Below are positions 8,712-24,890 of a DNA stretch of 32,000 nt, one piece after another. The notes beneath the pieces are model-generated. The model had not been told where the DNA came from. It saw only the letters and a program-made list of their open reading frames with translations, and searched no databases. Positions within the stretch are counted from its first letter, which is position 1. Each line of letters starts with the position of its first letter. This DNA is from Candidatus Iainarchaeum sp. (GTDB taxonomy: Archaea; Iainarchaeota; Iainarchaeia; Iainarchaeales; 0-14-0-20-30-16). The translations under genes were made by a program, and so were the position numbers. Where the stretch lies: NCBI GenBank assembly GCA_028710695.1, contig JAQTTP010000002.1:1-32000 (forward strand). Reading direction: 5' to 3'.

Positions 8712-9425
8712 CTACCTCTTAGATCTTTGTTTCTTTGCTCTTGCACCACGGCCTAATTGTTTCTTAGACTCTTTTCTTCTAGCATCATCTACTAGCAAAG
8801 ACTTATCATATTTCATAAACATTTCTTTTAATTTATCATCTTTATAGTATTCTACTAATCCTTTAGCAATACAGCCTCTTGAGGTGATTATCTGACTCAT
8901 GAATCCGCCGCCTTTTACTGCGATTTCAATGTCAACTCCATTAACTAATCCGTTTTTGAAGTTGTCAGTTAGCATTAAAGGCTCTCTAACTAGGTTATAA
9001 AGATGCTTGTTATCTATAACTGCAATTGGCTTTTTATTTATTGTTACTCTTCCTTTTCCATCTGAAATTCTTGCTGTTGCAATTGCGGTCTTTCTTTTTG
9101 CTTTAACTAAAACATATTTTTTCTTTCCTTTTTTACCTGCGGATTTAGATGTTTTTGCAGGGGCTTTACTAGTAACCTTGTCAGCAACTTTATCCTGTTT
9201 TTCTTTTGCTTTAATTGGTGCTGGCTCTTTCTTAGCTTCTACTTTTGGCTCTATTTTCTTTTCTGCCTTAGCCTTTACTTCTTTCTTAGCCTCTACTTTA
9301 GGCTTAGCTTCTACCTTGGCTTTAACTTCTTTTTTTGGAGCTTCCTTTTTTTCTGGTTTTGGAGCTTCTTTCTTTACTTCTTTAACTTTCTTTTCTATTG
9401 CTTTCTTAACTTCTTTAGCTACCAT
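8712..9425 (-). CDS. rps9: 30S ribosomal protein uS9 with a ~100-aa Lys-rich N-terminal extension.
   Basis: The C-terminal core 'GKRKTAIATARISDGKGRVTINKKP...GGGFMSQ...ARRKESKKQLGRGARAKKQRSKR' is uS9. The N-terminal half is KEAPK/PKVEAK low complexity. Confidence 0.9.
   Translation of the reverse strand: MVAKEVKKAIEKKVKEVKKEAPKPEKKEAPKKEVKAKVEAKPKVEAKKEVKAKAEKKIEPKVEAKKEPAPIKAKEKQDKVADKVTSKAPAKTSKSAGKKGKKKYVLVKAKRKTAIATARISDGKGRVTINKKPIAVIDNKHLYNLVREPLMLTDNFKNGLVNGVDIEIAVKGGGFMSQIITSRGCIAKGLVEYYKDDKLKEMFMKYDKSLLVDDARRKESKKQLGRGARAKKQRSKR
9166..9227 (-). repeat. Copy A (in the uS9 N-terminal extension) of a 62-nt segment that is 54/62 identical to 24310..24371 in the uL22 tail.
   Basis: Hand alignment of TTACTAGTAACCTTGTCAGCAACTTTATCCTGTTTTTCTTTTGCTTTAATTGGTGCTGGCTC against the uL22 copy. 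It encodes ..PAPIKAKEKQDKVADKVTSK.. Confidence 0.8.
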
Positions 9426-9430
9426 TAATA

Positions 9431-9901
9431 TCACCATTTAGCACCCAAAAACTTTGAAATTTCTGCAATTGCAACATTTTTTCTTAAAGGGTTTGCTATT
9501 GCTTTTTCAAGTTTTACCATCTTTACTGCTGGATCTGTCCCAACAAATACTTTTAATTTTCTATAAGCATCCATTCCTTTTGCTCTTTTGTGTTTTATCA
9601 TTCCCCTAATTGCTCTTCTAACTATTCCAGATGGATTTTTTGGATAGTGTGGGCCTTTCAAAGGGTTTCCTTTTCCAGCAAAATCTTGTTTTTCTTTATA
9701 TTTTTCAAATATGTCTGCCCTATTTCCATTTATAACTGCTTTTTCTGCATTATAAATGTTCACAGTATTTCCAGAAAGTATTTCTTTTGCAACATATGTT
9801 GCTCCTCTTCCTAAAACTGTGTTTTCAAAATCATAATTTATGATTTTTGGTTCTGGTTTAACAGCCCTGAATTTTCTTTTTACTTCGTTTCTTAATACCA
9901 T
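9431..9901 (-). CDS. rpl13: 50S ribosomal protein uL13.
   Basis: 'VLGRGATYVAKEILSGNTVNIYNAEKAVINGN' and 'IVRRAIRGMIKHKRAKGMDAYRKLKVFVG' are uL13 sequences. The ATG follows AAGGTG. Confidence 0.9.
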   Translation of the reverse strand: MVLRNEVKRKFRAVKPEPKIINYDFENTVLGRGATYVAKEILSGNTVNIYNAEKAVINGNRADIFEKYKEKQDFAGKGNPLKGPHYPKNPSGIVRRAIRGMIKHKRAKGMDAYRKLKVFVGTDPAVKMVKLEKAIANPLRKNVAIAEISKFLGAKW

Positions 9902-9911
9902 AACAGACACC

Positions 9912-10265
9912 TTATTTCACTAATATAACATTCTTTGGCTTTTCAGCAATTAATTCTTCTAAATTTTTTGCTTTTGCCCCGATATTTGCTAATTTTTTAA
10001 CTGCAACTGCGGAGTATGCGAAAGCATAAATATTCACTTTCTTTGTTATTACTCCAGTACCCAAAATTTTTCCAGGAACAACAAATACTGCCTTGTCATT
10101 CTTTGAAGCAAGTCTCTCAATTTTTGAAAGGTTAACAGTAAATGCCCTTCTAGATGGAACATCAATATCTTCCGCAATATCTAAAAGGTATTTTTGGCCT
10201 TTCTTTCCTGCTTTTTCCAATGCAATTATTGTTTTCTTCAAATTCAAATCCAAATTCTTTCTCAT
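9912..10265 (-). CDS. rpl18e: 50S ribosomal protein eL18 (L18e).
   Basis: 'PSRRAFTVNLSKIERL...VVPGKILGTG' is the L18e pattern, and the gene has the conserved position before uL13. Confidence 0.85.
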   Translation of the reverse strand: MRKNLDLNLKKTIIALEKAGKKGQKYLLDIAEDIDVPSRRAFTVNLSKIERLASKNDKAVFVVPGKILGTGVITKKVNIYAFAYSAVAVKKLANIGAKAKNLEELIAEKPKNVILVK

Positions 10266-10292
10266 TTCTATCACTCTTTAAACATTATCTCT

Positions 10293-10308
10293 GTGCCATT
10301 CATGGCAC
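10293..10308. promoter_or_regulatory. Relatively GC-rich palindrome GTGCCAT-TC-ATGGCAC in the eL18 leader.
   Basis: Perfect 7-bp arms read from the sequence, 28-43 nt upstream of the eL18 ATG. Confidence 0.2.
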
Positions 10309-10332
10309 TATTTTTTCTTTGGCGAACTTAGG

Positions 10333-10357
10333 CTTTCTTTTTTTTTAAAAAAGAAAG
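10333..10357 (-). terminator. A/T hairpin plus T-run immediately 3' of tRNA-Leu.
   Basis: + strand CTTTCTTTTTT-TTT-AAAAAAGAAAG (11-bp arms). On the minus strand the tRNA is followed by CTTTCTTTTTT. Confidence 0.3.
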
Positions 10358-10362
10358 GATAG

Positions 10363-10542
10363 TGTGGGGGGTGAGGCTCGAACTCACGAAGGCACTAAGC
10401 CACAGGATTTCCCACTCCCTTTTGAAAAGGGTAAGCACTTACAAACGGACTTATACCATTCTCTTTTCCGTCAACGCTTTTGCGCGAAAGCGGAAAAGGG
10501 TTGTCTTAAGTCCTGCCCGTTTGACCGCTTCGGTACCCCCAC
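10363..10542 (-). tRNA. tRNA-Leu (anticodon UAA) with a 96-nt intron at the canonical 37/38 position (intron 10409..10504).
   Basis: Minus-strand read: GTGGGGG-TA-CCGAAGCGGTCAAACGGG-CAGGA-CTTAAG | intron | A-TCCTG-TGGCTTAGTGCCTTC-GTGAG-TTCGAGC-CTCAC-CCCCCAC-A. It has a 7-bp acceptor stem, a 5-bp anticodon stem, a long variable arm (type II) and a canonical T-loop. No CCA is encoded. Confidence 0.8.
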
Positions 10543-10567
10543 AAGCCATTTGTAAATATTTTTCCCT

Positions 10568-11278
10568 CTATTTCAGTTTTGCTGAAATCTTTTTAAAATA
10601 TTCTTTCAAGTATTCATCAACATCAATAAAGATGTCTTCTAAATCCTTATTTTTGAATAATTCTAAATATAAATAAAATATATCTTCTGATAATTTTACT
10701 TTAAATCCTGCTTGCTCTAAGCAATATTTACAGAAATCATATGATGCAGTCTCAGAAATAACTAATTTATTTCCTTCTTTTTTTAACTGCCCTTCTGAAA
10801 CTAACTTTTCTATTTCCTTAGGAAGTTTGTCTTTTGTTTGTGCTTCTGCAAACTCTCTATAATAAACTAATGCTGGTTGGAATTTAACATGTTCTTTTCC
10901 AGTTCCTTTTCCCATTTTAAGCTCAATTTCTACTTCACAGTCTTTCTTTAATTTAACTAAAGGTATGTTTTTATATAGAACTTCAACATCGTTTGACTGA
11001 ATATCGTTGCTATAAACCATTCCGCCTTTCTTTTTTATATATCCTTTAGAATTATCGGATATTTCTCCTTTTATTGGAACTAGCCCAATTCTATTTGCTA
11101 AGAATTCATCAGGCATTACACTTTCATTCTTGTAGTATATTACCTCATCTACTGCCATTGTAGGAACTTCTGTTGTTATTGCTCTTCTTATAAAATTCAT
11201 AAAGGTGTAATCTACACCATTTAGAAGAAAGCAATACTTTCCTGTTTCCTTATCTGCGCTAACTAATTCCATCTTCAT
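10568..11278 (-). CDS. rpoD: DNA-directed RNA polymerase subunit D (Rpo3).
   Basis: 'FLLNGVDYTFMNFIRRAITTEVPTMAVDEV...NRIGLVPI' is the Rpo3/alpha-like dimerisation domain, and the gene follows uS11 as conserved. The ATG at 11278 (MKMELV) is preferred over the track GTG at 11323. Confidence 0.85.
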   Translation of the reverse strand: MKMELVSADKETGKYCFLLNGVDYTFMNFIRRAITTEVPTMAVDEVIYYKNESVMPDEFLANRIGLVPIKGEISDNSKGYIKKKGGMVYSNDIQSNDVEVLYKNIPLVKLKKDCEVEIELKMGKGTGKEHVKFQPALVYYREFAEAQTKDKLPKEIEKLVSEGQLKKEGNKLVISETASYDFCKYCLEQAGFKVKLSEDIFYLYLELFKNKDLEDIFIDVDEYLKEYFKKISAKLK

Positions 11279-11357
11279 AAAAACACATCCGCATATAGAT
11301 GCAAAACCGCTTTGGTCAGGCACCTACTTTGTTTTTGTTTGGACTTGGTAAGAAAAA

Positions 11358-11741
11358 TTATTTCTTCTCCTTTGATCTATATCTCTTCTTTCTTCTACAA
11401 CTATCATGTGGCATAGGAGTAACATTCTCAATCTCTAAAATACTCAACCCACCTCTAGTTAAAGAAGTTATTGCTGCTTCTGCTCCCGGACCTGGGTTCT
11501 TTGGTTTTATTCCACCTGGTGCTCGCACTCTTATTACTATACTACTTACGCCTTTGTTCTTTAAAGCATCAACTACTTGTTCTGCTGCCTTCATCGCGGT
11601 GTATGGGCTTCCTTCTTTATGTTGAGCTTTAGTTACCATACCACCAGTTACTCTAACTATAGTTTCTGATCCAGTTATATCTGTTGCCAAAATAATAATA
11701 TTATTGTGGGATGCAAATATGTTTACTATTGCTTTATTCAT
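11358..11741 (-). CDS. rps11: 30S ribosomal protein uS11.
   Basis: 'IFASHNNIIILATDITG...SPYTAMKAAE...PGPGAEAAITSLTRGGLSILEIENVTPMPHDSCRRKKR'. Confidence 0.95.
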   Translation of the reverse strand: MNKAIVNIFASHNNIIILATDITGSETIVRVTGGMVTKAQHKEGSPYTAMKAAEQVVDALKNKGVSSIVIRVRAPGGIKPKNPGPGAEAAITSLTRGGLSILEIENVTPMPHDSCRRKKRYRSKEKK

Positions 11742-12328
11742 TCAACCACCTTTTCTTCATTTTCAGTAACTGCCGGACTCATATCTACTGCTTGTTTAAC
11801 AGCCTCTGCCTGCATTCGCGGCTTTCTAAGTTCTACTTCTAAAACCTTTGGTTTCTTTCCTTTATAGTATGTAACCTTTGCTTCATCAACTACAGTAACT
11901 AATGAATTCGGAGAAGTTATTCTTCTTCCATTTATTGCTATATGTCCATGAACAATAAATTGTCTTGCTTGACTTAAAGTAGTTGCTAGCCCTTTTCTAA
12001 AAACTAACATAACCAATCTTCTTTCAAGTAAGTCTTCAATTTTCAAAGATAATACACTATCGATTGTTGCATCGTCTTTTAACAAGCCAAATTTCTTCAA
12101 AGAGTCAATTAAGATTTTCTTTTCTTTTTCTAATTGGTCTGATGGCAAAGCCAATATATCTCTTGCAGACTTTCTCTTTTTTCTTAGCATTGTCTTAAAC
12201 ATGAACAATTCTGTCTTGTTTCCTAAACAAAAGTTCTTTAACATGTCCCTCTCTTCAGGTATTCTTTCTTTATCGAACCTTTTCTTAGGAACACTATACT
12301 TCTTTGAAAATTTTCTTGGATCTCCCAT
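11738..12328 (-). CDS. rps4: 30S ribosomal protein uS4.
   Basis: 'MGDPRKFSKKY', 'LERRLVMLVFRKGLATTLSQARQFIVHGHIAINGRRITSP' (S4 domain). The SD is GGTGATAACA-ATG. Confidence 0.95.
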   Translation of the reverse strand: MGDPRKFSKKYSVPKKRFDKERIPEERDMLKNFCLGNKTELFMFKTMLRKKRKSARDILALPSDQLEKEKKILIDSLKKFGLLKDDATIDSVLSLKIEDLLERRLVMLVFRKGLATTLSQARQFIVHGHIAINGRRITSPNSLVTVVDEAKVTYYKGKKPKVLEVELRKPRMQAEAVKQAVDMSPAVTENEEKVVE

Positions 12329-12346
12329 TGTTATCACCGTTTAAAA

Positions 12347-12916
12347 TTATTTAGTTGCCTTTACAACTCCTACACTTCTTCCTTTACCTCTAAATCCTGC
12401 TTTTGTTTTTTGTCCTCTTACTGGCAGGCCTCTCATTCTTCTTATTGCTTTTCTATGTCTCATCTTACCTAATCTGTCTAATTCTTCTTTATCATTAAAC
12501 AATAAATCTGATCCTAAAAGGTGTTTTGCTTTTCCATCCCAAACGTCTTCTGGCTTGTTAACAAACCAATTTGGAAAACCGTGGTTTAAAGGATTCTTTG
12601 CAATGTCTTCTAGCAAAGCCAATTGTTTTTCATCTAGCTTTCCTATTTTTGTAGTTGGTGGCAATTTTGTTTTTAATTCAAAAATTCTCGCAACTGCAAC
12701 ATTGTATCTTGTTCCAATTCCTTTTATTTTCCCAAGTACAGTCTGAACAGACTTACCTGCTGAAACATCAGTATCAACAATTCTAACAATTCCTTCACTG
12801 GATTCTATCTTCTGTGGTTTTGGCACATAAGCTTTTTTTTCTGTTTTTACTTCAGTAGAATCTCTATCTTTATTTTTATCATTACCTTTTCCTTGTTTTT
12901 CTTCTTTTTTTGCCAT
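12347..12916 (-). CDS. rps13: 30S ribosomal protein uS13 with a ~40-aa charged N-terminal extension.
   Basis: 'IVRIVDTDVSAGKSV...IKGIG', 'FPNWFVNKPEDVWDGKAKHLLGSDL' and 'RGLPVRGQKTKAGFRGKG' are archaeal uS13 sequences. Confidence 0.92.
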   Translation of the reverse strand: MAKKEEKQGKGNDKNKDRDSTEVKTEKKAYVPKPQKIESSEGIVRIVDTDVSAGKSVQTVLGKIKGIGTRYNVAVARIFELKTKLPPTTKIGKLDEKQLALLEDIAKNPLNHGFPNWFVNKPEDVWDGKAKHLLGSDLLFNDKEELDRLGKMRHRKAIRRMRGLPVRGQKTKAGFRGKGRSVGVVKATK

Positions 12917-12935
12917 TAAATCACACCCATAATAA

Positions 12936-13145
12936 TTATAATTTCACTTTCTTAAGTTCCTCAATAGTCTTTACTACCTGGTCCAAAGGCCATAAGTGAA
13001 GCATATTTATTTTTCTTTTTTTGAACTTTAAACCTTCAACATCAACAATGTTTGATTTTGGGTCTACTGCAGTAATTATTACTACTTTTCCAAAATCATT
13101 TCCTTGCTTTATTATACAAACTCTTCCAACATCAATTATTTTCAT
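12936..13145 (-). CDS. rpl14e: 50S ribosomal protein eL14 (L14e, KOW).
   Basis: 'VGRVCIIKQGNDFGKVVIITAVDPKSNIVDVEG...KKRKINMLHLWP' matches the L14e pattern, and the gene sits after cmk as conserved. Confidence 0.75.
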   Translation of the reverse strand: MKIIDVGRVCIIKQGNDFGKVVIITAVDPKSNIVDVEGLKFKKRKINMLHLWPLDQVVKTIEELKKVKL

Positions 13146-13157
13146 GCAATCACGCCT

Positions 13158-13601
13158 TTATTTTTTCATCTTATTTAAATATTTTTCAATAACATCAATA
13201 ATTCCTGAAGAATTAATCTTATCTATATTAATTACTAAATCATAGTTTCCATAATCTTTTATGTTCAAACCATAATTATTTGTGAAATATTCTCTCATTT
13301 CACCATCTTTTGTTTCAATCTCTTTTTTTGCTTCTTCAATTGTTATTTTTTTATTTTCTACTAAGTATCTAATTTTGTTTTCTGAAGATGCTTTCAAAAA
13401 AATCCTTACATCCGGATCTTTTATTTTCCATACCGCCAACATTCCTTTATAGATTGTATCTTTTTTTGGCTTATTAAAAAAGCCTTCTTCTTTAGGAACA
13501 TTGTCTTCTATAGGTTCAAATTTCAAACCATATCTCATTGCAATGGCTTTACAGGTCGGTTCTATGTCTTCATAACCATTACTTGCAATAGTTATTATCA
13601 T
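13158..13601 (-). CDS. Cytidylate-kinase-like protein lacking a recognisable P-loop (probably not an active kinase).
   Basis: The C-terminal half 'RIFLKASSENKIRYLVENKKITIEEAKKEIETKDGEMREYF...YGLNIKDYGNYDLVINIDKIN' resembles archaeal Cmk, and the gene has the conserved eL34/eL14 position. Where GxxGxGK[ST] is expected, the sequence reads 'MIITIASNGYEDIEPT'. Confidence 0.6.
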   Translation of the reverse strand: MIITIASNGYEDIEPTCKAIAMRYGLKFEPIEDNVPKEEGFFNKPKKDTIYKGMLAVWKIKDPDVRIFLKASSENKIRYLVENKKITIEEAKKEIETKDGEMREYFTNNYGLNIKDYGNYDLVINIDKINSSGIIDVIEKYLNKMKK

Positions 13602-13660
13602 CACTTTCACCTATGAACAATATTTCCTGCCGATATTTTTACGCATAATTCTCTTTATAA

Positions 13661-13984
13661 CTACTTCCCAATTCTCTTTATTGCTTGAGAAACAAACTTC
13701 TTCATCGTTACTGTTAAGTCATCTTCTTTTTTTGCGCCTATTTTTACTTTTATTGCATTTTCAAAAACCTTGTCTCTACAAGTTGAGCACAAAACTCCAC
13801 CAAATACCACAGACGGCCTTTTTTCTGTTTTTGACAAACCTCTATTGTTGTTGGCAGACAATATTCTGTCTTTACAGATTCCACAACTTACTTTTGTCTT
13901 TTTTTGTCTTATAAGACTAATTCTAGATTCTCCACCTGGAACCCTTACCTTCTTTTTTTTCATTACTCTCTCGCTTGGTCTCAT
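13661..13984 (-). CDS. rpl34e: 50S ribosomal protein eL34 (L34e).
   Basis: 'MRPSERVMKKKKVRVPGGESR...CGICKDRI...GGVLCSTCRDKV' is the zinc-ribbon L34e pattern. The SD GTGATTATC precedes the ATG. Confidence 0.9.
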   Translation of the reverse strand: MRPSERVMKKKKVRVPGGESRISLIRQKKTKVSCGICKDRILSANNNRGLSKTEKRPSVVFGGVLCSTCRDKVFENAIKVKIGAKKEDDLTVTMKKFVSQAIKRIGK

Positions 13985-14001
13985 GATAATCACGCCTTAT
14001 T

Positions 14002-14445
14002 TTATCCAAATACTTTTTTCTTTTCTAACAAGTTAAATACAACACTGTAATAAATTCCTGAAACTATTGCAACTAGTATATACCATACTAATGCAGGGCT
14101 TAATCCCAAAAACTTTCCTACTGGAAATTCAGCATATAAGAAATATATTTGCACAATAAACAAAACTATTATTCCAATAACGAACAGGTATATCATATTT
14201 GACATATTTCCTTTCATCATCCCCATGGACAGTTCCATGATTTCTTTTTGTAGTTTATCTGCTTTTTCTTTTGCTTTGGGGTCTGTTGAAGAACTCTTCA
14301 TAAGTTCTTTCATTTCCTTTTGTTTCTCTTTTACTTCTTTTTGCTTTTCTTTTATTCCATACTTTTTTTCAGATCTTTTTTTCAAATAAAAACTAATTGC
14401 AGAAACTAATAATCCCAATGCACCTACAATAAACACTGCCCACAT
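14002..14445 (-). CDS. DUF106 / EMC3-TMCO1-like membrane protein (archaeal YidC-like insertase homologue).
   Basis: TM1, then a K/E-rich coiled coil ('KEKQKEVKEKQKEMKELM'), then two further TMs. It has the conserved position downstream of secY. Confidence 0.7.
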   Translation of the reverse strand: MWAVFIVGALGLLVSAISFYLKKRSEKKYGIKEKQKEVKEKQKEMKELMKSSSTDPKAKEKADKLQKEIMELSMGMMKGNMSNMIYLFVIGIIVLFIVQIYFLYAEFPVGKFLGLSPALVWYILVAIVSGIYYSVVFNLLEKKKVFG

Positions 14446-14451
14446 ATATTA

Positions 14452-15849
14452 TCACCGAGCCATAAACTTCCCTAACATTGGAAGCAATTGAGGTGCTTGT
14501 TCTCTTACCAATTCCTCATACATTCTATACAAAATATCAACTGTTAACAGTATTCCCATTCCGGTTCCTACTGCACCAGTAATGTCCGCAAATCCGGCCA
14601 TTAGTCCAACAAATATCGATCCCAAAATTGTAATTGTTGGGATATATCTATCCAAAACACCTTTTACTACTCTTGGGTCTCTTCTAAATCCTGGCAAATA
14701 CATTCCACTCTTATTTAGCTGATTAGCTAATGACCCGGAATCTTGTCCCGCCATCTGAACCCAAAGTACTCCAAACAAAACACATGCCGCAGTTAATACA
14801 ACAATATACAGTAAAGCAAATCCTATGCTAGACAGAATGTAACTCCATTCCGATCCACCACCAATTGCCTGGTTGAGGACATCTAGAACTACATTTCTTG
14901 TTGGATTAACCACCTTATCAATAAATGAAAATATTGTTGAAAATACTCCTGTGCCTTTTGCAATCCACTGCGCAAGCAAGTGTATATTTGCAAACAAAGC
15001 TGCAGCCAATATTACTGGCATATTGCTTACATAGAAGAACTTTACTGGGTACTTTCCCATAGCCCCTCTTTGTCCAACTGTTAGCGGAATATTTACGTGA
15101 ACTCCTTCAAAGTAAACAACTATGAAAAATACCACCAACGCAAATATTATAGGTAGGAGGTTGTTTACGAAACTTAATAGGAATCCACTTGTTCCTATGT
15201 TATGGAAAAATGACCATAACAATCCATCTGCAGATGCAAAATTAATTGCTGCATGTCCTATAGACAAACCTGCGCCCTGCGTAAATGGATTAAATATTCT
15301 AATTAATATTGTGCTGGCAACACCGCCCGCAATGAATAAAGAAATTCCAGAACCAAATCCGTAATTCTTTACAACTTCATCTAAATATAATAATATTATT
15401 GATCCTACTGCTACCTGCAATAAAACCCAGAAAAACATTCCTGGTTCTGGAGCCAAAAGCCCCATTTTTACATATATAAATCCTTCAAAGAAAGATAAGA
15501 TAATTGCTAACAATTTTTGCCAACTACTGAATTTTGCTCTTTGGGCAGGATCTGAAAAATCCATATTAATTATTTTACTTCCAACTAGCAATTGTAATAT
15601 AATGGATGCCACAACTATTGGACCTATACCTACACTAATTATTGTTCCGATTTTACTTGCCAATAAGTACTGGATGTGTTCTAAACCAATTTGAGCTGAT
15701 GCACTCAATCCGTAGATTGGGATCATACCCAAAACAAAGAACACAACTAGGATTAATAGTGTCCATTTAAGCTTAGATGTCAAAGATGGTTTTTCCTTTG
15801 GAGTTACAACTTCTGGAATAACCCTGAAAACATTATCCATTATACTCAT
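14452..15849 (-). CDS. secY: Preprotein translocase subunit SecY.
   Basis: A 465-aa polytopic protein with 'VIPEVVTPKEKPSLTSKLKWTLLIL...IPIYGL' and 'GSGISLFIAGG'. It follows uL15 with an ATGA overlap. Confidence 0.95.
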   Translation of the reverse strand: MSIMDNVFRVIPEVVTPKEKPSLTSKLKWTLLILVVFFVLGMIPIYGLSASAQIGLEHIQYLLASKIGTIISVGIGPIVVASIILQLLVGSKIINMDFSDPAQRAKFSSWQKLLAIILSFFEGFIYVKMGLLAPEPGMFFWVLLQVAVGSIILLYLDEVVKNYGFGSGISLFIAGGVASTILIRIFNPFTQGAGLSIGHAAINFASADGLLWSFFHNIGTSGFLLSFVNNLLPIIFALVVFFIVVYFEGVHVNIPLTVGQRGAMGKYPVKFFYVSNMPVILAAALFANIHLLAQWIAKGTGVFSTIFSFIDKVVNPTRNVVLDVLNQAIGGGSEWSYILSSIGFALLYIVVLTAACVLFGVLWVQMAGQDSGSLANQLNKSGMYLPGFRRDPRVVKGVLDRYIPTITILGSIFVGLMAGFADITGAVGTGMGILLTVDILYRMYEELVREQAPQLLPMLGKFMAR

Positions 15850-16274
15850 TCTATCTTTCCTCCCTTGCTTTCAACCATCTTTTTAACATTCTCAATAGCT
15901 TTTATATTTTTCAAAATGAATTTATATTTTGGCTCTTTTCTACCAATTACTTTAGTATATTTCTTAAATCTCTTATTTTCTGCAAAGTCAATTTCTATTC
16001 CTTTTTCAAGATCTGCTTTTTTAATTGTGCCTGCGTCAACAAGATTATCTACATACTCATTTAACATTAATAAAGATATTGCTATATCTTCAGTTCGTGC
16101 TCTTTGAGAAACTTTTGGTTCTTCATCCATGAACTTAATCCAGTGGTGCCCAAAGTGTCCAGCTCTTCCTCTTCCACCTCTAGAACCTGCACCTCTTCTT
16201 GCCTTAGTGTCTCCTGCACCTCTAGTTCTTGTTCCCAAATATCTTTTTTTCCTTCTTTCTTGTCTTACAACCAT
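15846..16274 (-). CDS. rpl15: 50S ribosomal protein uL15.
   Basis: 'RRKKRYLGTRTRGAGDTKARRGAGSRGGRGRAGHFGHHW'. Confidence 0.92.
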   Translation of the reverse strand: MVVRQERRKKRYLGTRTRGAGDTKARRGAGSRGGRGRAGHFGHHWIKFMDEEPKVSQRARTEDIAISLLMLNEYVDNLVDAGTIKKADLEKGIEIDFAENKRFKKYTKVIGRKEPKYKFILKNIKAIENVKKMVESKGGKIE

Positions 16275-16765: not shown

Positions 16766-16766
16766 T

Positions 16767-17492: not shown

Positions 17493-17504
17493 GGATTATT
17501 CCCC

Positions 17505-17990: not shown

Positions 17991-18424
17991 TTTTTCACCT
18001 TATCAACATACAACTTTATGTGGCCTTTACTTCTAAAGAATCCACCTCTTACTTTAGCATAAAGATCTTTGTATAATGTAGAATCTATTTCGTTCTTATC
18101 TTTCATTTCTCTAATATATTTTCTTTGTGCCCTAACCTTCTTTATCCATTCTTCTTTAGGTCTTGTTCTTGCGGTCTTTACACCTTTTCTTGTTCCTGGA
18201 CCTCTTCTTCTTCCTGCGGTTTTCTTAGCTTTCAGCTTTCTTGCCCTGCCTCTACTTTGGCCAGATATTACTTTCTTTACTGTCCCATTATTCACCATTT
18301 CTTTAATATCGTCTTTTGTAATGGCTTTTTTTACTTCAGTAGTTGCATCAGGGGAAATCCAAACTTTTGACTTTCCAACATTAAGCAATTTTGAAACCTG
18401 TCCTCTAAAAGATTTCATATTCAT
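17987..18424 (-). CDS. rpl19e: 50S ribosomal protein eL19 (L19e).
   Basis: 'SKLLNVGKSKVWISPD', 'GQSRGRARKLKAKKTAGRRRGPGTRKG'. Three candidate ATGs (18430/18424/18418) follow GGTGAT. Confidence 0.9.
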   Translation of the reverse strand: MNMKSFRGQVSKLLNVGKSKVWISPDATTEVKKAITKDDIKEMVNNGTVKKVISGQSRGRARKLKAKKTAGRRRGPGTRKGVKTARTRPKEEWIKKVRAQRKYIREMKDKNEIDSTLYKDLYAKVRGGFFRSKGHIKLYVDKVKK

Positions 18425-18455
18425 ATTCATCACCAAAAAACATAATCCAATTTTT

Positions 18456-18968
18456 CTAATTCAATATCTTTATTCCTTTTTTCTCAGCTTCTTTTCTAAT
18501 AGACTCTTTCTTTTTCTTTCCAACTGTTGAGCTTATTCTTGCTGCGTGTGTTTCTTTCTTTACTTTTTCTAAATCTTTAACATTACATACTCTTGTTTCT
18601 CTATATCCTGATGGGTGTAGTCCTCTTATTTCCTCTGGGTTCTTATAACCGCCTTTAACTCTACAACCGTCTCCTTTTTTCCACTTTATATCTATTCCTC
18701 TTGGAACTCTCCACTTATTGAACTTGTCCTTAGCCTTACTTCTTATTTGTCTTATTCCAAATCTTCCTCTAAAAGTTGGGTGTTTCTTTTTCTTTGAAAT
18801 CAATTTCTTAAGTCTAGCTATCAAACTTGTAGGAGCTACTCTTTTCTTTTCTTTTTTTCCTTGTTTTGCTTTGGCCTTTGGTTTAGTTTCTTTTACTGGC
18901 TCGTTTTTAGCTTCTACCTTTGGTTCTACTGCTTTCTTAACAGTACTTGCTTTTTTAATATCACTCAT
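18456..18968 (-). CDS. rpl32e: 50S ribosomal protein eL32 (L32e) with a ~45-aa Lys-rich N-terminal extension.
   Basis: The core is 'FNKWRVPRGIDIKWKK...GYKNPEEIRGLHPSGYRETRVCNVKDLE'. The N-terminus reads 'KKAVEPKVEAKNEPVKETKPKAKAK'. The ATG at 18968 follows AAGGTGTTCAAA. Confidence 0.9.
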   Translation of the reverse strand: MSDIKKASTVKKAVEPKVEAKNEPVKETKPKAKAKQGKKEKKRVAPTSLIARLKKLISKKKKHPTFRGRFGIRQIRSKAKDKFNKWRVPRGIDIKWKKGDGCRVKGGYKNPEEIRGLHPSGYRETRVCNVKDLEKVKKETHAARISSTVGKKKKESIRKEAEKKGIKILN

Positions 18969-19491
18969 TTTGAACACCTTTTTCAACTATATAAATTCCG
19001 TCTTGGAAAATTCTTCTATCTTTAGATCTTACTTTTGCTTTACCTTCAATATTAGCTGCTACTTGGCCTGCAGCATCCTTATCTACAGAAATTATGAAAA
19101 TATCTTTTCCTTTAATTTCAACTTTTACATTGTCAACAAGCTTAATTTTTATTTGCTTTTTTTGACCTGCAAAATTGGATATTACAAATACATTGTCTTT
19201 TACTGCAACACTTAATGGGAAGTGAGAATATACTATACTCAATTTGTAATTATATGGTCTACAAACCCCAGATATCATGTTTTTAATATTCTTGGATAAA
19301 GTCATCATCTGAGCTCTTGCTGGCTTTTTTTCGTTTTTTGTTTTAAAGGTTATATCTTTCCCGTTTATTGTCAAGTCAACCAATCTTACTGGGTTCTTTT
19401 TTGACACACTACCTTTAGGCCCTTTAACAACGAAGTTTTTACCATCGTATTTTACTTCAACATTATCCGGAACTTTAATATTTGATTCCAT
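18961..19491 (-). CDS. rpl6: 50S ribosomal protein uL6.
   Basis: 'IKVPDNVEVKYDGKNFVVKGPKGSVSK' and a two-domain L6 pattern. The ATG follows GAAGGTGAAAAAA. Confidence 0.92.
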   Translation of the reverse strand: MESNIKVPDNVEVKYDGKNFVVKGPKGSVSKKNPVRLVDLTINGKDITFKTKNEKKPARAQMMTLSKNIKNMISGVCRPYNYKLSIVYSHFPLSVAVKDNVFVISNFAGQKKQIKIKLVDNVKVEIKGKDIFIISVDKDAAGQVAANIEGKAKVRSKDRRIFQDGIYIVEKGVQNE

Positions 19492-19502
19492 TTTTTTCAC
19501 CT

Positions 19503-19892
19503 TCAATATACATATGCTATTAATTTTCCGCCAATTCCTTGTTTCTTGGCTTCTCTATGAGTCATTATTCCTTTTGGAGTTGAAACTACCAAATAACCCA
19601 TGTTCTTAGATGGAAGATATCTCTTCTCAAATCTCTCATAATCTTTAATTTGTACAGAATATCTTGGCTTTATTGCCTTACATTCTGTTATTGCACCTTT
19701 AAGCTTAACTTCAAGGATTCCGCCTCTTGGATTTTCTTTAACATCGAATCCTTCAATATAACTCAGATCTCTCAAAAGACTACATGTTGCTACAATTAAT
19801 TTACTTGCTGGCTTTATGCTACAGCTTCTTTTAGCAACAAATTCTGAATTTTTCATCATTATCATTGCATCTGAAAATACATCAACACTCAT
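19503..19892 (-). CDS. rps8: 30S ribosomal protein uS8.
   Basis: 'DVFSDAMIMMKNSE...', 'YLVVSTPKGIMTHREAKKQGIGGKLIAYVY'. Confidence 0.93.
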   Translation of the reverse strand: MSVDVFSDAMIMMKNSEFVAKRSCSIKPASKLIVATCSLLRDLSYIEGFDVKENPRGGILEVKLKGAITECKAIKPRYSVQIKDYERFEKRYLPSKNMGYLVVSTPKGIMTHREAKKQGIGGKLIAYVY

Positions 19893-19903
19893 TTTAAACA
19901 CCT

Positions 19904-20038
19904 TTAATTATATTTTTTAAATCCTAAATTTATTGCATTATCTTTGAAACATCTTCTACAAACATAAAGATTATACTTTCTTACTAGGCCTCTATTTGTG
20001 CCGCAGATTTTACAAACAACCTTTTTCTTATCTGTCAT
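19904..20038 (-). CDS. rps14: 30S ribosomal protein uS14 (zinc-binding type, 44 aa). Absent from the ORF track because it is under 60 aa.
   Basis: Hand translation gives MTDKKKVVCKICGTNRGLVRKYNLYVCRRCFKDNAINLGFKKYN, with CxxC...CxxC. The ATG overlaps the uL5 TGA (ATATGA). It holds the conserved uL5/uS8 position. Confidence 0.9.
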   Translation of the reverse strand: MTDKKKVVCKICGTNRGLVRKYNLYVCRRCFKDNAINLGFKKYN

Positions 20039-20742
20039 ATTACATCAACCCCGAAGGTCTTGTTAACATAAGCAACTGCATCTTCTTTTGTAACTTTGTG
20101 TGTGTTTCCAATGCTTTTTCTGTAAAGCAATCTATTCTTTACTCTATATCCTCTTCTTTTTAAATTTACTATAACGTCAAATCCAAGCAATCCTAATTTA
20201 GGGTCATATTTCATTCCTTGTATATCAATGTATTCCTTTACACCCAAAGCAAAGTTTCCATTCTCGTCAAAGCTCTTTGATTTTATCTGGTTCTTATATG
20301 CTTTGAAAACTCTTGCCAAGATTTCTTTTGCTTTCTTGCCTCTCAAAGTAACTTTAGTACCAATTGGTAGGCCAGGCTTTATACCCCATTTTGGCAATCT
20401 TGTTTTTGCCTTAGTTTCAACAGGTTTCATTTCAGTTAATCTTACCAAAATTTCTTTAGCATTCTGCAGTTTTCCAGCATTATCTCCAACACACATATGC
20501 AGAACTACCTTGTCTAATTGTAGTTCTCTCATTGCATTGTTTGAGTTCTTAACAACCTTTGCACTAGTAGATTTAGTAGCCTTACTAGGAGTCAAAGCCT
20601 TTGTCTCTGCTTTACCTTGGTGTTCTTTGGCTTCTTTCTTTACTTCAACCTTTGGCTCTTTCTTAGCTTCTACTTTAGGTTCTACTTTAGGCACAGGTTT
20701 CTGTTCTACTGCCTTGCTTTCTTTTGCTTGCTCTTTAGACAT
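20035..20742 (-). CDS. rpl5: 50S ribosomal protein uL5 with a ~65-aa Lys-rich N-terminal extension.
   Basis: The core starts 'NAMRELQLDKVVLHMCVG'. The N-terminus reads 'KPVPKVEPKVEAKKEPKVEVKKEAKE'. Confidence 0.92.
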   Translation of the reverse strand: MSKEQAKESKAVEQKPVPKVEPKVEAKKEPKVEVKKEAKEHQGKAETKALTPSKATKSTSAKVVKNSNNAMRELQLDKVVLHMCVGDNAGKLQNAKEILVRLTEMKPVETKAKTRLPKWGIKPGLPIGTKVTLRGKKAKEILARVFKAYKNQIKSKSFDENGNFALGVKEYIDIQGMKYDPKLGLLGFDVIVNLKRRGYRVKNRLLYRKSIGNTHKVTKEDAVAYVNKTFGVDVI

Positions 20743-20761
20743 TGTAATCACACCCTAAATA

Positions 20762-21478
20762 TCATTGTACTAAATAATCAAATTCGTCCGGTAACATAAA
20801 TACATAATCCAACAAACTTCTTACTTCTTTTTTCTTTGTTTTAACAACAATTTCTGCTTTTCTTACCTCATCTCCAGAAACTATTGCTTTAACATTTCCC
20901 ACATTTCCAATGTGTGTTCCTTCTATGAAAATTACTTTTACACCTTCACTAAATTCATAGTGATCTTTTATCTTCTTTGCTTTAAAATCATAAGCCACAA
21001 CATCATTTACCTTGTACTTATCTTTATCTATATTTATATTATAGCCGTTGTCCAAAAATAACTGCTTTTTTCCACCTTTTACAGTTTTCTTTCCAACAAT
21101 TTTGCTTAATCTTAAATCTGGCTTTTTATAATCTATTTCTATTATTTCCATCTTCTTGTTTTTGTGTGGAACAAAAGTATATTTCTTTTTTGTATCTACT
21201 AAATCTATAATGTCAAACAATCCAACAGGGAATTTATAATCTTTTATTCTTACACCATTTACTAAAACAGTTTTTGTTTGCAAAACTTTTTTTACTTCTC
21301 TTAAGTCATTTGCAACATTCAAAATGTTTCTTAAAACAACAGTCATAGACACACATTTCTGCTCTGCTTTTGTGCCTGGAGCTGGTTTTACTAAAAAAGT
21401 ATGATCCTTTTTTAAAACATGCTTTGGTCCAGCATAACTTATTCTTTTTAAAGTTGAACTTCCACCTTTACTTGCCAT
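20762..21478 (-). CDS. rps4e: 30S ribosomal protein eS4 (S4e).
   Basis: 'LKRISYAGPKHVLKKDHTFLVKPAPG', 'VLVNGVRIKDYKFPVGLFDIIDL'. Confidence 0.93.
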   Translation of the reverse strand: MASKGGSSTLKRISYAGPKHVLKKDHTFLVKPAPGTKAEQKCVSMTVVLRNILNVANDLREVKKVLQTKTVLVNGVRIKDYKFPVGLFDIIDLVDTKKKYTFVPHKNKKMEIIEIDYKKPDLRLSKIVGKKTVKGGKKQLFLDNGYNINIDKDKYKVNDVVAYDFKAKKIKDHYEFSEGVKVIFIEGTHIGNVGNVKAIVSGDEVRKAEIVVKTKKKEVRSLLDYVFMLPDEFDYLVQ

Positions 21479-21483
21479 CTTAT

Positions 21484-22029
21484 TCACCTTTTCTTAACCT
21501 TGTCTTGTTTGCTCATAATTGCCAAATCCTTGCCTAATCTTTGTTTGTCTTGGTTTGCTTTTGACTCTTTTTTGTGTTCTTCTTTTTGAGTCTCTTTTTT
21601 AGGCTCTGCTTTTGGCTCTTTCTTTACTTCTTTTTTAACATCAACTTTCTTTGGTGTTTCTTTTTTTTCTTTATGTACTTTTTTTTCTTTCTTAAGCTTT
21701 GACAATCTAACATTGTCGTTCAAGCTAAGTTCTTTTATTATTAAATTTGAAGGCTGGAACTTTACGTAAATTTCCTTACCATCAACTTTCTTAATTTTTA
21801 GATTATCAATATTAACATAACTGTCGGCAACACTTGCTTTAACAATTTTTCCTTCTTTGCCTTTGTATTTTCCAACCATTACTTTTACTATATCGTCTTT
21901 TCTTACTTGTATGGCTCTCATCTTGTATTTATCTCTCAGTTCTTTTGATAAGTGAACCCTTAATTCCTTTTGCTTTCTATGCAAAGGAGCATTCATCTTT
22001 CTTTTTCTTTCTGAATCTGGTTTTACCAT
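21484..22029 (-). CDS. rpl24: 50S ribosomal protein uL24 with a ~70-aa Lys-rich C-terminal extension.
   Basis: KOW core 'VRKDDIVKVMVGKYKGKEGKIVK'. The tail reads 'KKEKKVHKEKKETPKKVDVKKEVKKEPKAEPKKETQKEEHKKESK'. Confidence 0.9.
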   Translation of the reverse strand: MVKPDSERKRKMNAPLHRKQKELRVHLSKELRDKYKMRAIQVRKDDIVKVMVGKYKGKEGKIVKASVADSYVNIDNLKIKKVDGKEIYVKFQPSNLIIKELSLNDNVRLSKLKKEKKVHKEKKETPKKVDVKKEVKKEPKAEPKKETQKEEHKKESKANQDKQRLGKDLAIMSKQDKVKKR

Positions 22030-22045
22030 TAAATCACCTTAAATA

Positions 22046-22444
22046 TTATACAATCATAGATGCTTTTCCTGCAATCTTAGGCCATCTTTCTCCAATTTCT
22101 TTTGGAACTGCACCTTTAACTTCTGTTCCTTTTGGAACTCCGTCTTTATCAACTAATACAACCGCGTTATCTTCAAACTTCAATTTCAATCCGTTTGCTC
22201 TTGTTAATCCGCTCTTTGTTCTTATTACAATTGCCATAAAAATCTTCTTTCTTAATTCTGGCTTACCTTTGGAAACAACTATATTTATCATATCCCCTAT
22301 TCCTGCTTTTGGTATTCTTCTTTTTCTTGTTTTCAAATTAAATACACTTATTAAGTATACTTCTTTTGCACCTGTGTTATCAGCACAAGTCATGTGAGTC
22401 TTTAATGCTACAGCTCTTTGTGGTGTTGCAGGCATTGCTTTCAT
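22046..22444 (-). CDS. rpl14: 50S ribosomal protein uL14.
   Basis: 'MTCADNTGAKEVYLISV', 'GDMINIVVSKGKPELRKK', 'FEDNAVVLVDKDGVPKGT'. Confidence 0.95.
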   Translation of the reverse strand: MKAMPATPQRAVALKTHMTCADNTGAKEVYLISVFNLKTRKRRIPKAGIGDMINIVVSKGKPELRKKIFMAIVIRTKSGLTRANGLKLKFEDNAVVLVDKDGVPKGTEVKGAVPKEIGERWPKIAGKASMIV

Positions 22445-22710
22445 TCTGAATCACCTTTAACTTTAGATACAATTATGAAATTTTTTGTTTTACTGATTTT
22501 TCTTGTTTCACCAATTCTTACAATGTCTCCTACTTCTACTTTTATTTCGTCAGGAACATGCACTGCAATTCTTGATTTAACTTTCGTATATCTTTCATAT
22601 TTCTTGATAAAGTGCACAATTTCTCTTTCAACAACAGCAGTTTTTGCACTCTTCATCTTAGTTATTTTTCCAACCAAAAATGAACCTCTCGGGATATATT
22701 TTGTTTCCAT
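22441..22710 (-). CDS. rps17: 30S ribosomal protein uS17.
   Basis: 'GKITKMKSAKTAVVEREIVHFIKKYERYTKVKSRIAVHVPD...VGDIVRIGETRKISKTK'. Confidence 0.93.
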   Translation of the reverse strand: METKYIPRGSFLVGKITKMKSAKTAVVEREIVHFIKKYERYTKVKSRIAVHVPDEIKVEVGDIVRIGETRKISKTKNFIIVSKVKGDSE

Positions 22711-22711
22711 T

Positions 22712-22975
22712 TTAAGTCCTCCAACATAATTTTATTCTTTCTTCCGGCCTGTAATTTATTTTATCTCCATTAACTAAATATTCTTCTTTTCCATTTCTAA
22801 ATTTAAACATCTTTCCTTTCTTTGGGATGGTCTTCAACCCATCTTTGCATTCAACAACAAAAACATTTTTCGTTTCGTTGTAAACTTTCCCTTTAATTCC
22901 TTTTTGGGAATCATCACTTGATTCCATTATTTCTATTTCCAATCCTAAATATTCCATTATCTCTTTTTTTCCCAT
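22712..22975 (-). CDS. rnp1: RNase P protein component 1 (Rpp29/Pop4).
   Basis: 'GLEIEIMESSDDSQKGIKGKVYNETKNVFVVE...KTIPKKGKMFKF...YRPEERI' is the Rpp29 Sm-like pattern. The gene precedes uS17 as conserved. Confidence 0.85.
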   Translation of the reverse strand: MGKKEIMEYLGLEIEIMESSDDSQKGIKGKVYNETKNVFVVECKDGLKTIPKKGKMFKFRNGKEEYLVNGDKINYRPEERIKLCWRT

Positions 22976-22993
22976 AAACTTTCATTTCCCTAT

Positions 22994-23290
22994 TTAACTT
23001 TTAATATTCTTGGGAGAAAATCCTCTTTTTATCAAGAAAGCTCTTGCTTTTCTTGTATGCCTTCCTTGTAGTTCAATTATATTATCTTTTGCTGTTCCAC
23101 CACAAGCTAATTCTTTCTTTAAATCTTTTGCCATTGATTCTACTTCTTTAGGATCAATACCGCTTATATCAGTTACCATTTTGAATTTTTTCTTAAATTC
23201 TCTTATTGTTATCTCTTCCTGTTCTGCCATTATTTTTTTACAAACACAAAGTTCTTTTGGCAAACCACATACTGCACATAAACCGCTCAT
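22994..23290 (-). CDS. sui1: Translation initiation factor aSUI1 (eIF1 homologue).
   Basis: An N-terminal 'CAVCGLPKELCVC' zinc knuckle and the SUI1 core 'ACGGTAKDNIIELQGRHTRKARAFLIKRGF'. Confidence 0.88.
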   Translation of the reverse strand: MSGLCAVCGLPKELCVCKKIMAEQEEITIREFKKKFKMVTDISGIDPKEVESMAKDLKKELACGGTAKDNIIELQGRHTRKARAFLIKRGFSPKNIKS

Positions 23291-23305
23291 TATGTCCAAA
23301 CTCCT

Positions 23306-23527
23306 TTATTTTTTAATAATACTTTTGGCTAGTTCATCCCTTTTCTTTTGAGAGATAACTGTTAATATTCTTGCAATATTTCTTCTTACATTTTTTATCT
23401 GATTTTTTTTATCATCCTTAGTTCCGATCTTTAGCTTAACTCTTTCTTCCATTAATTTTTCTTGTAATACATCAAGCTCTTTATTAAGCTCTTCGTAACT
23501 CTTTTTCAGATAATCTTTTGCTTTCAT
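23306..23527 (-). CDS. rpl29: 50S ribosomal protein uL29.
   Basis: 'SYEELNKELDVLQEKLMEERVKL...IKNVRRNIARILTVISQKK'. Confidence 0.9.
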   Translation of the reverse strand: MKAKDYLKKSYEELNKELDVLQEKLMEERVKLKIGTKDDKKNQIKNVRRNIARILTVISQKKRDELAKSIIKK

Positions 23528-23537
23528 AAAAATCCCT

Positions 23538-24218
23538 CTACTTCTTCTGCTCTTTGTCTAGAACTTCAACTTCTTTTTTCTCGTCCTCAGACATTATAGC
23601 ATATAATTTACTTACTTTATTCAAGATATCATCTTTACTAATTTTATCTGGGAAAACTGTTCCTGGCGGAATCAACTTTAAAGTAACTCCAATTGCTCCA
23701 GACTTTGTATATGCTGCACCAGTTCCAACTCTTACCTTTGAAACTTGGTCTCCAGCTTTTTTCATATAACCAAATGGAACTCTGTATTTCTGCTTTCTTC
23801 CACCTTTTGACATAAGTTTTCCTTTTATTAATAATTCAAATCCTTCTAAGTTTGTAGCAGTTAATTCTTTAACAGCCCTATATACAACAGATCTCCATGA
23901 AAAATTTCTTTCTAAACCGCTTATAATGCTGTTAACTATATGTTGAGCATTAAATTCTGGGTTCTCTATAGGCTTAATCTCTAATACTGGGTTCTTTATT
24001 TCGTATTTTGTTTCCAATATTTGAGTTAATTTCTTAACATTCTTTCCGCTATAACCTATTGCCAAACCAGGTTTTGCAACAGTAAGTATTATTTTTGTAG
24101 CCATTGGTGTTTTCACAATTTCAACGCCACTGAATCCAGCCTTACTAAGGTTCTTTCTAAAGAAATCCTCAATCTGTATCTTTCTATATGCTTGCTGTAT
24201 AAAGTTTTTCTCTATCAT
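23538..24218 (-). CDS. rps3: 30S ribosomal protein uS3.
   Basis: KH domain 'GFSGVEIVKTPMATKIILTVAKPGLAIGYSGKNVKKL', plus 'GRKQKYRVPFGYMKKAGD'. Confidence 0.95.
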   Translation of the reverse strand: MIEKNFIQQAYRKIQIEDFFRKNLSKAGFSGVEIVKTPMATKIILTVAKPGLAIGYSGKNVKKLTQILETKYEIKNPVLEIKPIENPEFNAQHIVNSIISGLERNFSWRSVVYRAVKELTATNLEGFELLIKGKLMSKGGRKQKYRVPFGYMKKAGDQVSKVRVGTGAAYTKSGAIGVTLKLIPPGTVFPDKISKDDILNKVSKLYAIMSEDEKKEVEVLDKEQKK

Positions 24219-24248
24219 GATTATCACGCCATTAATTCAATATAATTA

Positions 24249-24890
24249 TCACTTTCTATTAGGTATTTTTGTATGAGCCTTACTTATTGAAGCTGAAGCA
24301 AATTGTGTTTTACTAGTAGCATTGTCAGCAACCTTATCCTGTTTTTCATTTGCCTTGATTGGTGCAGTCTCTATTTTTGCATCTACTTTTGCTTCTACCT
24401 TTTTATCCTCTTTCTTTGTTTCTGCTTTTGGTGCTTTTGGTTTTAGTTTATGTCTTTGTCTTACTAAAACTTCCAAATGAACTGATTTAGTATATCTTAA
24501 TCTTCTTCTTCCACCAGGCTGGATAGTTGGTCTCCTTACTCCTGGATTTGCAACTACGCCCACAACTGCCAAGTCTTCACCGTCTAATCCTTTGTGCTCA
24601 GCATTACTCTTTGCTAAAGCCAAAGCTTTCTTGAAGAACTTTGCTGCTTTTACTGGGTATCTTCCGCTTTTTACTTTTCCTTCCATACCTGCTCTGTGAC
24701 CAACATCATCATTAAATCTTGGCAAAGGAACATATCTTTTCATTTCTATTACATCATCAAGATAAGCTATTACCTTTGAGTATGGTTTTCCCTTAATATA
24801 CATTCCCAACTCAGATGAAAATTTCTGAGAGATTGGGCAGTTTAGTAACAAAGCCCTTGCTTCATTTTCTTTTGCTTCAAAGTATGCCAT
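24249..24890 (-). CDS. rpl22: 50S ribosomal protein uL22 with a ~65-aa Lys-rich C-terminal extension.
   Basis: The core is 'ISQKFSSELGMYIKGKPYSKVIAYLDDVI...GRYPVKAAKFFKKAL...HLEVLV'. The tail reads 'KPKAPKAETKKEDKKVEAKVDAKIETAPIKANEKQDKVADNATSK'. Confidence 0.92.
   Translation of the reverse strand: MAYFEAKENEARALLLNCPISQKFSSELGMYIKGKPYSKVIAYLDDVIEMKRYVPLPRFNDDVGHRAGMEGKVKSGRYPVKAAKFFKKALALAKSNAEHKGLDGEDLAVVGVVANPGVRRPTIQPGGRRRLRYTKSVHLEVLVRQRHKLKPKAPKAETKKEDKKVEAKVDAKIETAPIKANEKQDKVADNATSKTQFASASISKAHTKIPNRK
24310..24371 (-). repeat. Copy B (in the uL22 C-terminal tail) of the 62-nt segment shared with uS9 (9166..9227).
   Basis: TTACTAGTAGCATTGTCAGCAACCTTATCCTGTTTTTCATTTGCCTTGATTGGTGCAGTCTC is 54/62 identical by hand count. 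Confidence 0.8.

Follow-up and report, generated by a model that had tools for sequence, protein, structure and literature searches.

Lysine-rich low-complexity tails on ribosomal proteins of a Candidatus Iainarchaeum genome and DNA cassettes shared between them

Bacterial and archaeal ribosomal proteins often carry terminal low-complexity regions rich in alanine, glutamate and lysine, which recur across genera, according to a survey that covered 102 archaeal proteomes (PMC6821194, Ntountoumi et al. 2019, NAR). The archaeal cases given there include S3, S24e, L10, L12 and FtsY, and the lysine-rich ones were read as nucleic-acid binding. Here, tails of this general kind were analysed on six proteins, uS9, uS13, eL32, uL5, uL24 and uL22, encoded by the ribosomal-protein operons of Candidatus Iainarchaeum sp., an uncultured DPANN archaeon belonging to the order Iainarchaeales (genome G000; 0.90 Mb, 27 contigs, 86 % complete, 32 % G+C). 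The window analysed comprises the opening 32 kb of contig C15 of this genome, in which fused operons running from uL3 down to uS9 occupy 8.7–28.2 kb, all on the minus strand. The nearest named relatives of G000 are metagenome-assembled genomes labelled Candidatus Diapherotrites or Iainarchaeum, including CG08_land_8_20_14_0_20_30_16 (G006). As in the survey, the features are terminal low-complexity tails on conserved ribosomal proteins, and eS24 and FtsY are tailed in G000 too. However, the six proteins are not among the frequent archaeal cases named in the excerpt of PMC6821194, in which no sharing of cassettes is described. An incomplete literature search turned up no description of these tails for Iainarchaeota or DPANN. 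The original prediction, made from the DNA of the window, had not recognised the tails as a described feature; this holds for the lineage and for these proteins, whereas the general phenomenon was already published.

Other described systems resemble the tails in part. In eukaryotes, uL22 (L17, ~184 aa) and uL24 (L26, ~145 aa) are extended at the same termini as here, but there the added parts are shorter and conserved and adopt an ordered structure on the surface of the ribosome, unlike the present tails. Alignments made with phmmer against eukaryotic uL22 reach query residue ~157–176, which is 10–30 residues into the low-complexity tail, and this overlap may be purely compositional. The L32e protein of Haloarcula carries an N-terminal extension that is acidic and is not built from PKVEAK units. 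In the halophile Haloarcula marismortui (PDB 1JJ2/1S72, 240–241 aa) this extension amounts to ~100 residues, the core aligning at chain residues 121–231, and its origin is independent of that of the eL32 tail described here. In mosquitoes, RpS6 and RpL23a bear lysine-rich extensions resembling histone H1 (Hernandez & Fallon 2007, cited in PMC11764897). These, together with PAKKA-type tails on bacterial nucleic-acid-binding proteins, are like the present tails in being lysine-rich, low-complexity and independently evolved terminal add-ons. Those tails are rich in lysine, alanine and proline and strongly basic, whereas the tails described here contain 8–15 % glutamate and have a low net charge.

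Six ribosomal proteins with lysine-rich tails

In all six proteins, Pfam and the chains of solved archaeal ribosomes matched the core only, with the tail appended at the N or the C terminus (Table 1). The excess over the solved archaeal orthologues ranged from about 35 to 105 residues. The original prediction had listed these six genes, with positions and lengths, as carrying extra tails on proteins of both subunits, and all of this was borne out by the open reading frames (ORFs), the Pfam matches and the alignments to Protein Data Bank (PDB) chains; the lengths it had given as typical of archaea were likewise correct when compared with the solved chains. Lysine accounts for 24–38 % of tail residues and glutamate for 8–15 %, against 10 % and 7 % in the proteome as a whole, and lysine, glutamate, proline, alanine and valine together make up 56–86 %. 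Arginine is nearly absent, and the net charge lies between +0.07 and +0.21 per residue. The tails had been described as polycationic, but their glutamate content and low net charge make them polyampholytes with a mild positive bias rather than polycations.

AlphaFold2 models, built with alignments, were made for two of the six tails, and both tails are predicted to be disordered. Residues 20–93 of uS9 and residues 151–208 of uL22 showed predicted local distance difference test (pLDDT) scores below 50 and no secondary structure as assigned by DSSP. The cores scored above 90 in uS9 and mostly above 80 in uL22.

Several lines of evidence support the tails as real and translated parts of the proteins, as judged from the gene sequences. 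A GGTGAT or GTGAT motif is present 8–11 nt 5' of the ATG at nearly every gene of the operon, including all four genes with N-terminal tails. The motif before uS9 is GGTGAT, 10 nt from ATG 9425, while uS13 has GTGAT at 8 nt, eL32 has AGGTG at 11 nt and uL5 has GTGAT at 9 nt from the ATG. The uS9 frame offers no further ATG, GTG or TTG between codons 2 and 129, and therefore a tail-less uS9 cannot arise by internal initiation. The same long forms were also predicted by gene callers elsewhere. Mis-called starts were rejected as the source of the tails, given that Shine-Dalgarno motifs precede the tail ATGs and that uS9 has no alternative start. The presence of GGTGAT or GTGAT upstream of most ATGs in the operon is in itself an indication of strong Shine-Dalgarno use in this DPANN archaeon.

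The tails were further compared with those of G002, a sister species of G000 that was used both for the ratio of non-synonymous to synonymous change (pN/pS) and for the module comparisons described below. All six tails stay in frame between the two genomes through 1–30 gapped codons per tail. In these low-complexity alignments of a single species pair, pN/pS was 0.22–0.48 in the tails (uS13 0.22, eL32 0.28, uL5 0.29 and uL24 0.48) and 0.05–0.15 in the cores (0.05 for uL5). At the level of sequence, this comparison shows the tail-coding DNA to be under relaxed yet purifying selection with the frames kept open. Growth of poly-lysine driven by A/T bias was not supported, as the G+C content of the tails (0.29–0.40) is not below that of the genome (0.32) and the tails are rich in proline, alanine and valine.

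Repeats and DNA cassettes within the tails

Analysis with Tandem Repeats Finder identified in-frame periods of 9, 12, 18, 24 and 27 nt within the tails of uS9, uL5, uL24, uL22 and uS13. Near-identical 21-mers coding for EPKVEAK had been predicted in uS9, eL32 and uL5; all three were found in place, against none expected from 100 dinucleotide shuffles. Identity between tails extends beyond these units. A stretch of 24 nt is 100 % identical between uS9 (9222–9245) and uL5 (20653–20676), and the uS9 and uL22 tails share 83 nt at 85.5 % identity, positioned at 24309–24391 on the uL22 side.

A 23-residue block, PAPIKAKEKQDKVADKxTSK, here termed module A, occurs as DNA-level copies in the uS9, uL22 and FtsY tails of G000. 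The uS9 copy matches that of uL22 at 59/69 nt, that of FtsY at 33/35 nt and the orthologous copy of G002 at 62/69 nt. The uS9 copies of G000 and G002 differ by six synonymous changes and a single non-synonymous one, and module A is more constrained than the remainder of this tail (Fisher p = 0.04, with small numbers). In G002, module A is present in uS9, uL5, eL32 and uL22, and the uS9 and uL5 tails of that genome match over 88 nt at 97.7 % identity, including a core that is identical at 69/69 nt; synonymous divergence (pS) between G000 and G002 is about 0.45. Module A was found in uS9 of G000, of G002 and of a third population known from a metagenome contig, but in uL5 of G002 only, and a recent copy from the uS9 tail to the uL5 tail is therefore indicated. 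These two tails lie 11.5 kb apart within the same operon. Independent Joint Genome Institute (JGI) metagenome contigs carry the same uL5 and uS9 forms, which are therefore not an artefact of assembly. Module A was not found in G001, G005 or G006, nor in any of the other metagenome matches. A 55-nt perfect repeat in G002 was also considered and was discarded as the duplicated flanks of an assembly gap.

The presence of one DNA cassette, in frame, in several unrelated genes is a property that module A shares with the Rickettsia palindromic elements (RPEs). Unlike these elements, module A contains no palindrome or hairpin, has no intergenic copies and lies only inside tails that are already similar. 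Its folding was no better than that of shuffled DNA (z = –0.55, +0.85 and +1.32), and no intergenic or out-of-frame copy was detected genome-wide, the three copies of G000 and the three to four of G002 all being in frame within tails rich in lysine and glutamate. A mobile palindrome of the RPE type was rejected on the lack of a hairpin and of intergenic copies. Because all copies sit in tails that resembled one another beforehand, we favour ectopic recombination or template switching over a mobile element, and the spread of module A is best read as ectopic gene conversion or template switching between similar repeat tracts. The copying of cassettes between tails of different ribosomal-protein genes adds a modestly new detail to what has been described.

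A further unit, TGKTLAPTKK, lies within an internal lysine-rich linker of a protein judged by eye to be IscU/NifU-like. The unit recurs in several ribosomal-protein tails, namely in uL5 of G000 and in uS9, uL24, uL22 and eL32 of sister genomes.

Table 1. Positions of the tailed proteins, repeats, cassettes and other features (window positions unless a contig of G000 is given)
Feature	Position	Strand	Description	Core match	Solved archaeal chains
uS9	8712..9425	-	237 aa from ATG 9425; N-terminal tail ~104 aa (codons 1-104), 9114-9425	Pfam 114-241 of 241-aa ORF; PDB chains from residue ~105-110	132-137 aa
uS13	12347..12916	-	189 aa from ATG 12916; N-terminal tail ~41 aa, 12794-12916	Pfam from residue 45; PDB chains from residue 39-42	148-149 aa
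eL32	18456..18968	-	170 aa from ATG 18968; N-terminal tail ~45-50 aa, about 18819-18968	Pfam from about residue 73; PDB chains from residue 52-62	123-130 aa (exception Haloarcula, 240)
uL5	20035..20742	-	235 aa from ATG 20742; N-terminal tail ~65 aa, 20548-20742	Pfam from residue 72 of 238-aa ORF	165-188 aa
uL24	21484..22029	-	181 aa; C-terminal tail ~66 aa, 21487-21684	Pfam 4-114	118-122 aa
uL22	24249..24890	-	213 aa; C-terminal tail ~63 aa, 24252-24440	Pfam 17-143	150-156 aa
Tandem repeats, uS9 tail	9267..9381	-	periods 18 and 24 nt		
Tandem repeats, uL5 tail	20663-20691		period 12 nt		
Tandem repeats, uL24 tail	21556-21690		periods 27, 12 and 9 nt		
Tandem repeats, uL22 tail	24370-24441		periods 12 and 9 nt		
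EPKVEAK-coding 21-mer, uS9	9232..9252	-			
EPKVEAK-coding 21-mer, eL32	18907-18927	-			
EPKVEAK-coding 21-mer, uL5	20663-20683	-			
Module A, uS9 tail	9165..9233	-	KKEPAPIKAKEKQDKVADKVTSK		
Module A, uL22 tail	24309..24377	-	KIETAPIKANEKQDKVADNATSK		
Module A, FtsY	G000:C3:164845-164879		TKAKEKQDKVVDN		
FtsY	G000:C3:164509-165780	+	N-terminal region ~115 aa, rich in K/E/P, before SRP54-type GTPase; contains module A		
MetRS	G000:C10:5872-7908	-	C-terminal tail ~140 aa, polylysine/valine/proline; 43 % K, net +0.38 per residue		
uS3	23538-24227	-	229 aa		
IscU/NifU-like protein	G000:C11:36752-37408	+	internal K-rich linker		
Unassigned protein, 324 aa	G000:C13:2421-3413	+	two long K-rich blocks (KKVKKKKVKKVKKAKKKK...)		
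tRNA-Leu(UAA)	10363-10542	-	intron ~94 nt		

Distribution of the tails and other tailed proteins

The operon of G000 was compared with those of 20 other Iainarchaeales genomes, six from its own family and 14 representing 13 others. Every operon orthologue was measured, and a ribosomal protein was counted as tailed when it exceeded the shortest orthologue by 30 aa or more, a measure in which over-long start calls inflate some of the N-terminal values. Each genome of the set with a complete operon carried 3–13 tailed ribosomal proteins. The summed excess was 582 aa over 26 proteins in G000 and ranged from about 380 to 970 aa across genomes. The tail burden of G000 is mid-range, and what differs between genomes is which proteins are tailed. 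Tails on uS9, eL32, uS13, uL24, uS4 and most of all uS3 recur across many families, with unrelated sequences. The C-terminal tail of uL22 was present in 5/5 operons of the same family with data and in 0/14 operons of other families, while a long N-terminal tail of uL5 was confined to G000 and G002, with a shorter version in G006. Within the Iainarchaeales set, the comparison supports these two as the only lineage-specific tails, that of uL22 at the level of the family and that of uL5 at the level of the genus plus one relative. The uS9 protein of G001 (131 aa) at first seemed to have lost its tail, but this is an artefact, since a run of N falls within the tail; P0006, with 235 aa, is the intact form.

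The uS3 protein of this genus carries no C-terminal tail rich in lysine and glutamate. A tail of 30–140 aa is present in each of the 16 uS3-containing operons from other genera. By this comparison, the uS3 tail has been lost specifically in this lineage, in the opposite direction to the tail gains.

Recurrence of the tails in orthologues of other genera was confirmed in the 20 operons, among homologues of uS9, of which 14 of the best 120 were extended, and for uL22 in other DPANN, where C-terminal tails of similar composition were found in Woesearchaeota and other distant homologues. The tails had been predicted to result from a coordinated, lineage-specific acquisition. Lineage specificity survives for the uL22 and uL5 tails, but a single coordinated event does not, since every complete operon has its own set of tailed proteins and the recurring tails are unrelated in sequence. 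The comparisons instead show an order-wide and wider DPANN habit, with rapid gain, loss and replacement of tails protein by protein.

Similar tails occur in G000 outside the six proteins, on eL31, eS24, FtsY and methionyl-tRNA synthetase (MetRS). No Pfam match to the usual C-terminal tRNA-binding domain (tRNA_bind) was found in MetRS, and its tail may be a disordered replacement of that domain. Lysine-rich blocks were also noted in a 324-aa protein without a Pfam match, the N-terminal half of which is acidic and coiled-coil-like. The tails were also considered as tethered stand-ins for polyamines, for which the synthesis genes are partly present: the 86 %-complete genome contains an AdoMet decarboxylase homologue (73 bits) and a sub-threshold match to spermidine synthase (19.5 bits), and a pyruvoyl arginine decarboxylase was not found in it.

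Within the window, a tRNA-Leu(UAA) gene with an intron was recognised by eye between the genes for eL18 and RpoD, having been missed by both ARAGORN and Rfam. It has the acceptor stem GTGGGGG/CCCCCAC, the T arm GTGAG-TTCGAGC-CTCAC, the anticodon loop CTTAAGA and a long variable arm, and the intron is at the canonical position.

Proposed role and alternative explanations

The tails are probably genuine, translated and intrinsically disordered appendages of weakly cationic character, for which non-specific, low-affinity contact with RNA and/or solubility of the particle is the most likely role. They lengthen and shorten as units of 9–27 nt are duplicated in tandem and in frame, and short cassettes copied ectopically from the tail-coding DNA of one gene into that of another are a second source of change. 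Selection would act mainly on the composition and length of a tail rather than on its sequence, which fits a constant composition combined with fast sequence turnover. From the general architecture of ribosomes, the termini concerned are expected to be exposed to solvent, the N-termini of uS9 and uS13 on the head of the small subunit and that of uL5 on the central protuberance, and uL22, uL24 and eL31 are placed around the polypeptide exit. From such positions the tails would project as flexible appendages made of lysine, glutamate, proline and alanine and sweep the ribosome surface, where they may provide weak, salt-sensitive attraction to polyanions such as rRNA, tRNA, mRNA and signal recognition particle (SRP) RNA, and perhaps to membrane lipids near the exit. 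They could also act as solubilising bristles that keep the ribosome particle in solution. As such they would be neither specific structural elements nor a stand-in for missing rRNA. The tails of MetRS and FtsY would fit the same generic role, as a cheap tether to RNA or another polyanion.

Several points weigh against this role. The low net charge and the near absence of arginine argue against tight RNA binding, we infer RNA contact from the charge of the tails alone, and the selection estimates depend on one species pair and on alignments of low complexity.

The main rival is nearly neutral growth, in which slippage-prone repeats at exposed termini are tolerated without function in small, drift-dominated DPANN genomes; we regard it as unlikely overall, though as deserving serious weight. 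It would account for the very fast turnover that leaves unrelated sequences on one protein in neighbouring families, for a tailed set that differs in every genome with a widely varying total burden, for the construction of the tails from tandem repeats, for pN/pS values 3–6 times those of the cores, and for the loss in this genus of the near-universal uS3 tail. Growth without function fits less well with C-terminal tails that stay open for 63–66 codons at 32 % G+C, for which our own arithmetic gives a random chance of ~0.007, and with pN/pS well below 1. The composition of the tails is moreover constant across lineages and uses the GC-richer codons of proline, alanine and valine, so that A/T bias is no explanation, and module A is constrained like a core by the substitution counts given above.

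A minority reading, which we consider improbable, treats the tails as flexible linkers that display linear motifs, namely module A with its EKQDKVAD core and the C-terminal end of uL22, and that recruit one partner to both the ribosome and FtsY. The appearance of module A on uS9, uL22 and FtsY in G000 and on uS9, uL5, eL32 and uL22 in the sister species is in keeping with this, as is its retention in uS9 of three species while the flanking repeats diverge. The end of uL22, F-A-x-A-x-I-S-K-x-H-T-K-I-P-x-R-K, is likewise conserved between G000 and G002. However, module A is limited to a clade below the level of the genus, identity at the DNA level denotes copying and is enough by itself to explain the sharing, and AlphaFold2 shows no structure in this region; the constraint on module A is drawn from only seven substitutions, and no candidate partner is known. 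It is similarly doubtful that module A is a functional motif spread among the tails of uS9, uL22, uL5, eL32 and FtsY, the SRP receptor, by ectopic gene conversion and docking one shared partner, in which case cassette exchange would have produced a multivalent, ribosome-wide recruitment handle in this clade.

That the tails make up for a reduced rRNA or for ribosomal proteins that are missing, which the original prediction had raised as a possible role, is very unlikely. DPANN genomes are reduced and the tails occur on both subunits, as this explanation would expect, but the 23S (2,935 nt) and 16S (1,481 nt) rRNAs of G000 are full length and cover the archaeal Rfam models end to end, and a tailed set that varies from genome to genome is a misfit with a fixed structural gap. 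Replacement of lost rRNA by the tails, as known from mitoribosomes, was rejected on the full length of both rRNAs. Least credible of all, and largely refuted, is an artefact of mis-called starts with untranslated stretches or of an RPE-type element inserted in frame: the six-frame ORF lists do begin 3–6 codons early ('MVILM', 'MIIM', 'VITM'), with the GTG of the motif or an upstream TTG taken as the start, but the upstream motifs and the uS9 reading frame speak for the long forms, the C-terminal tails are independent of start calls, and module A has neither the fold nor the intergenic or out-of-frame copies of such an element.

Cassette copying aside, the feature is an ordinary one for this lineage. 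Paralogous sequence is common to the tails, which makes it advisable to trim them ahead of any ribosomal-protein phylogeny. A minimal DPANN genome nevertheless spends ~580 extra codons on disordered tails in a single operon of its most abundant proteins, and this cost hints at a general role, for example in charge management, in the weak tethering of RNA or in solubility. DPANN ribosomes offer a natural case for how disordered appendages arise before fixed, ordered extensions of the eukaryotic kind, and tandem duplication together with ectopic copying provides a concrete mutational route to such appendages on ribosomal proteins.

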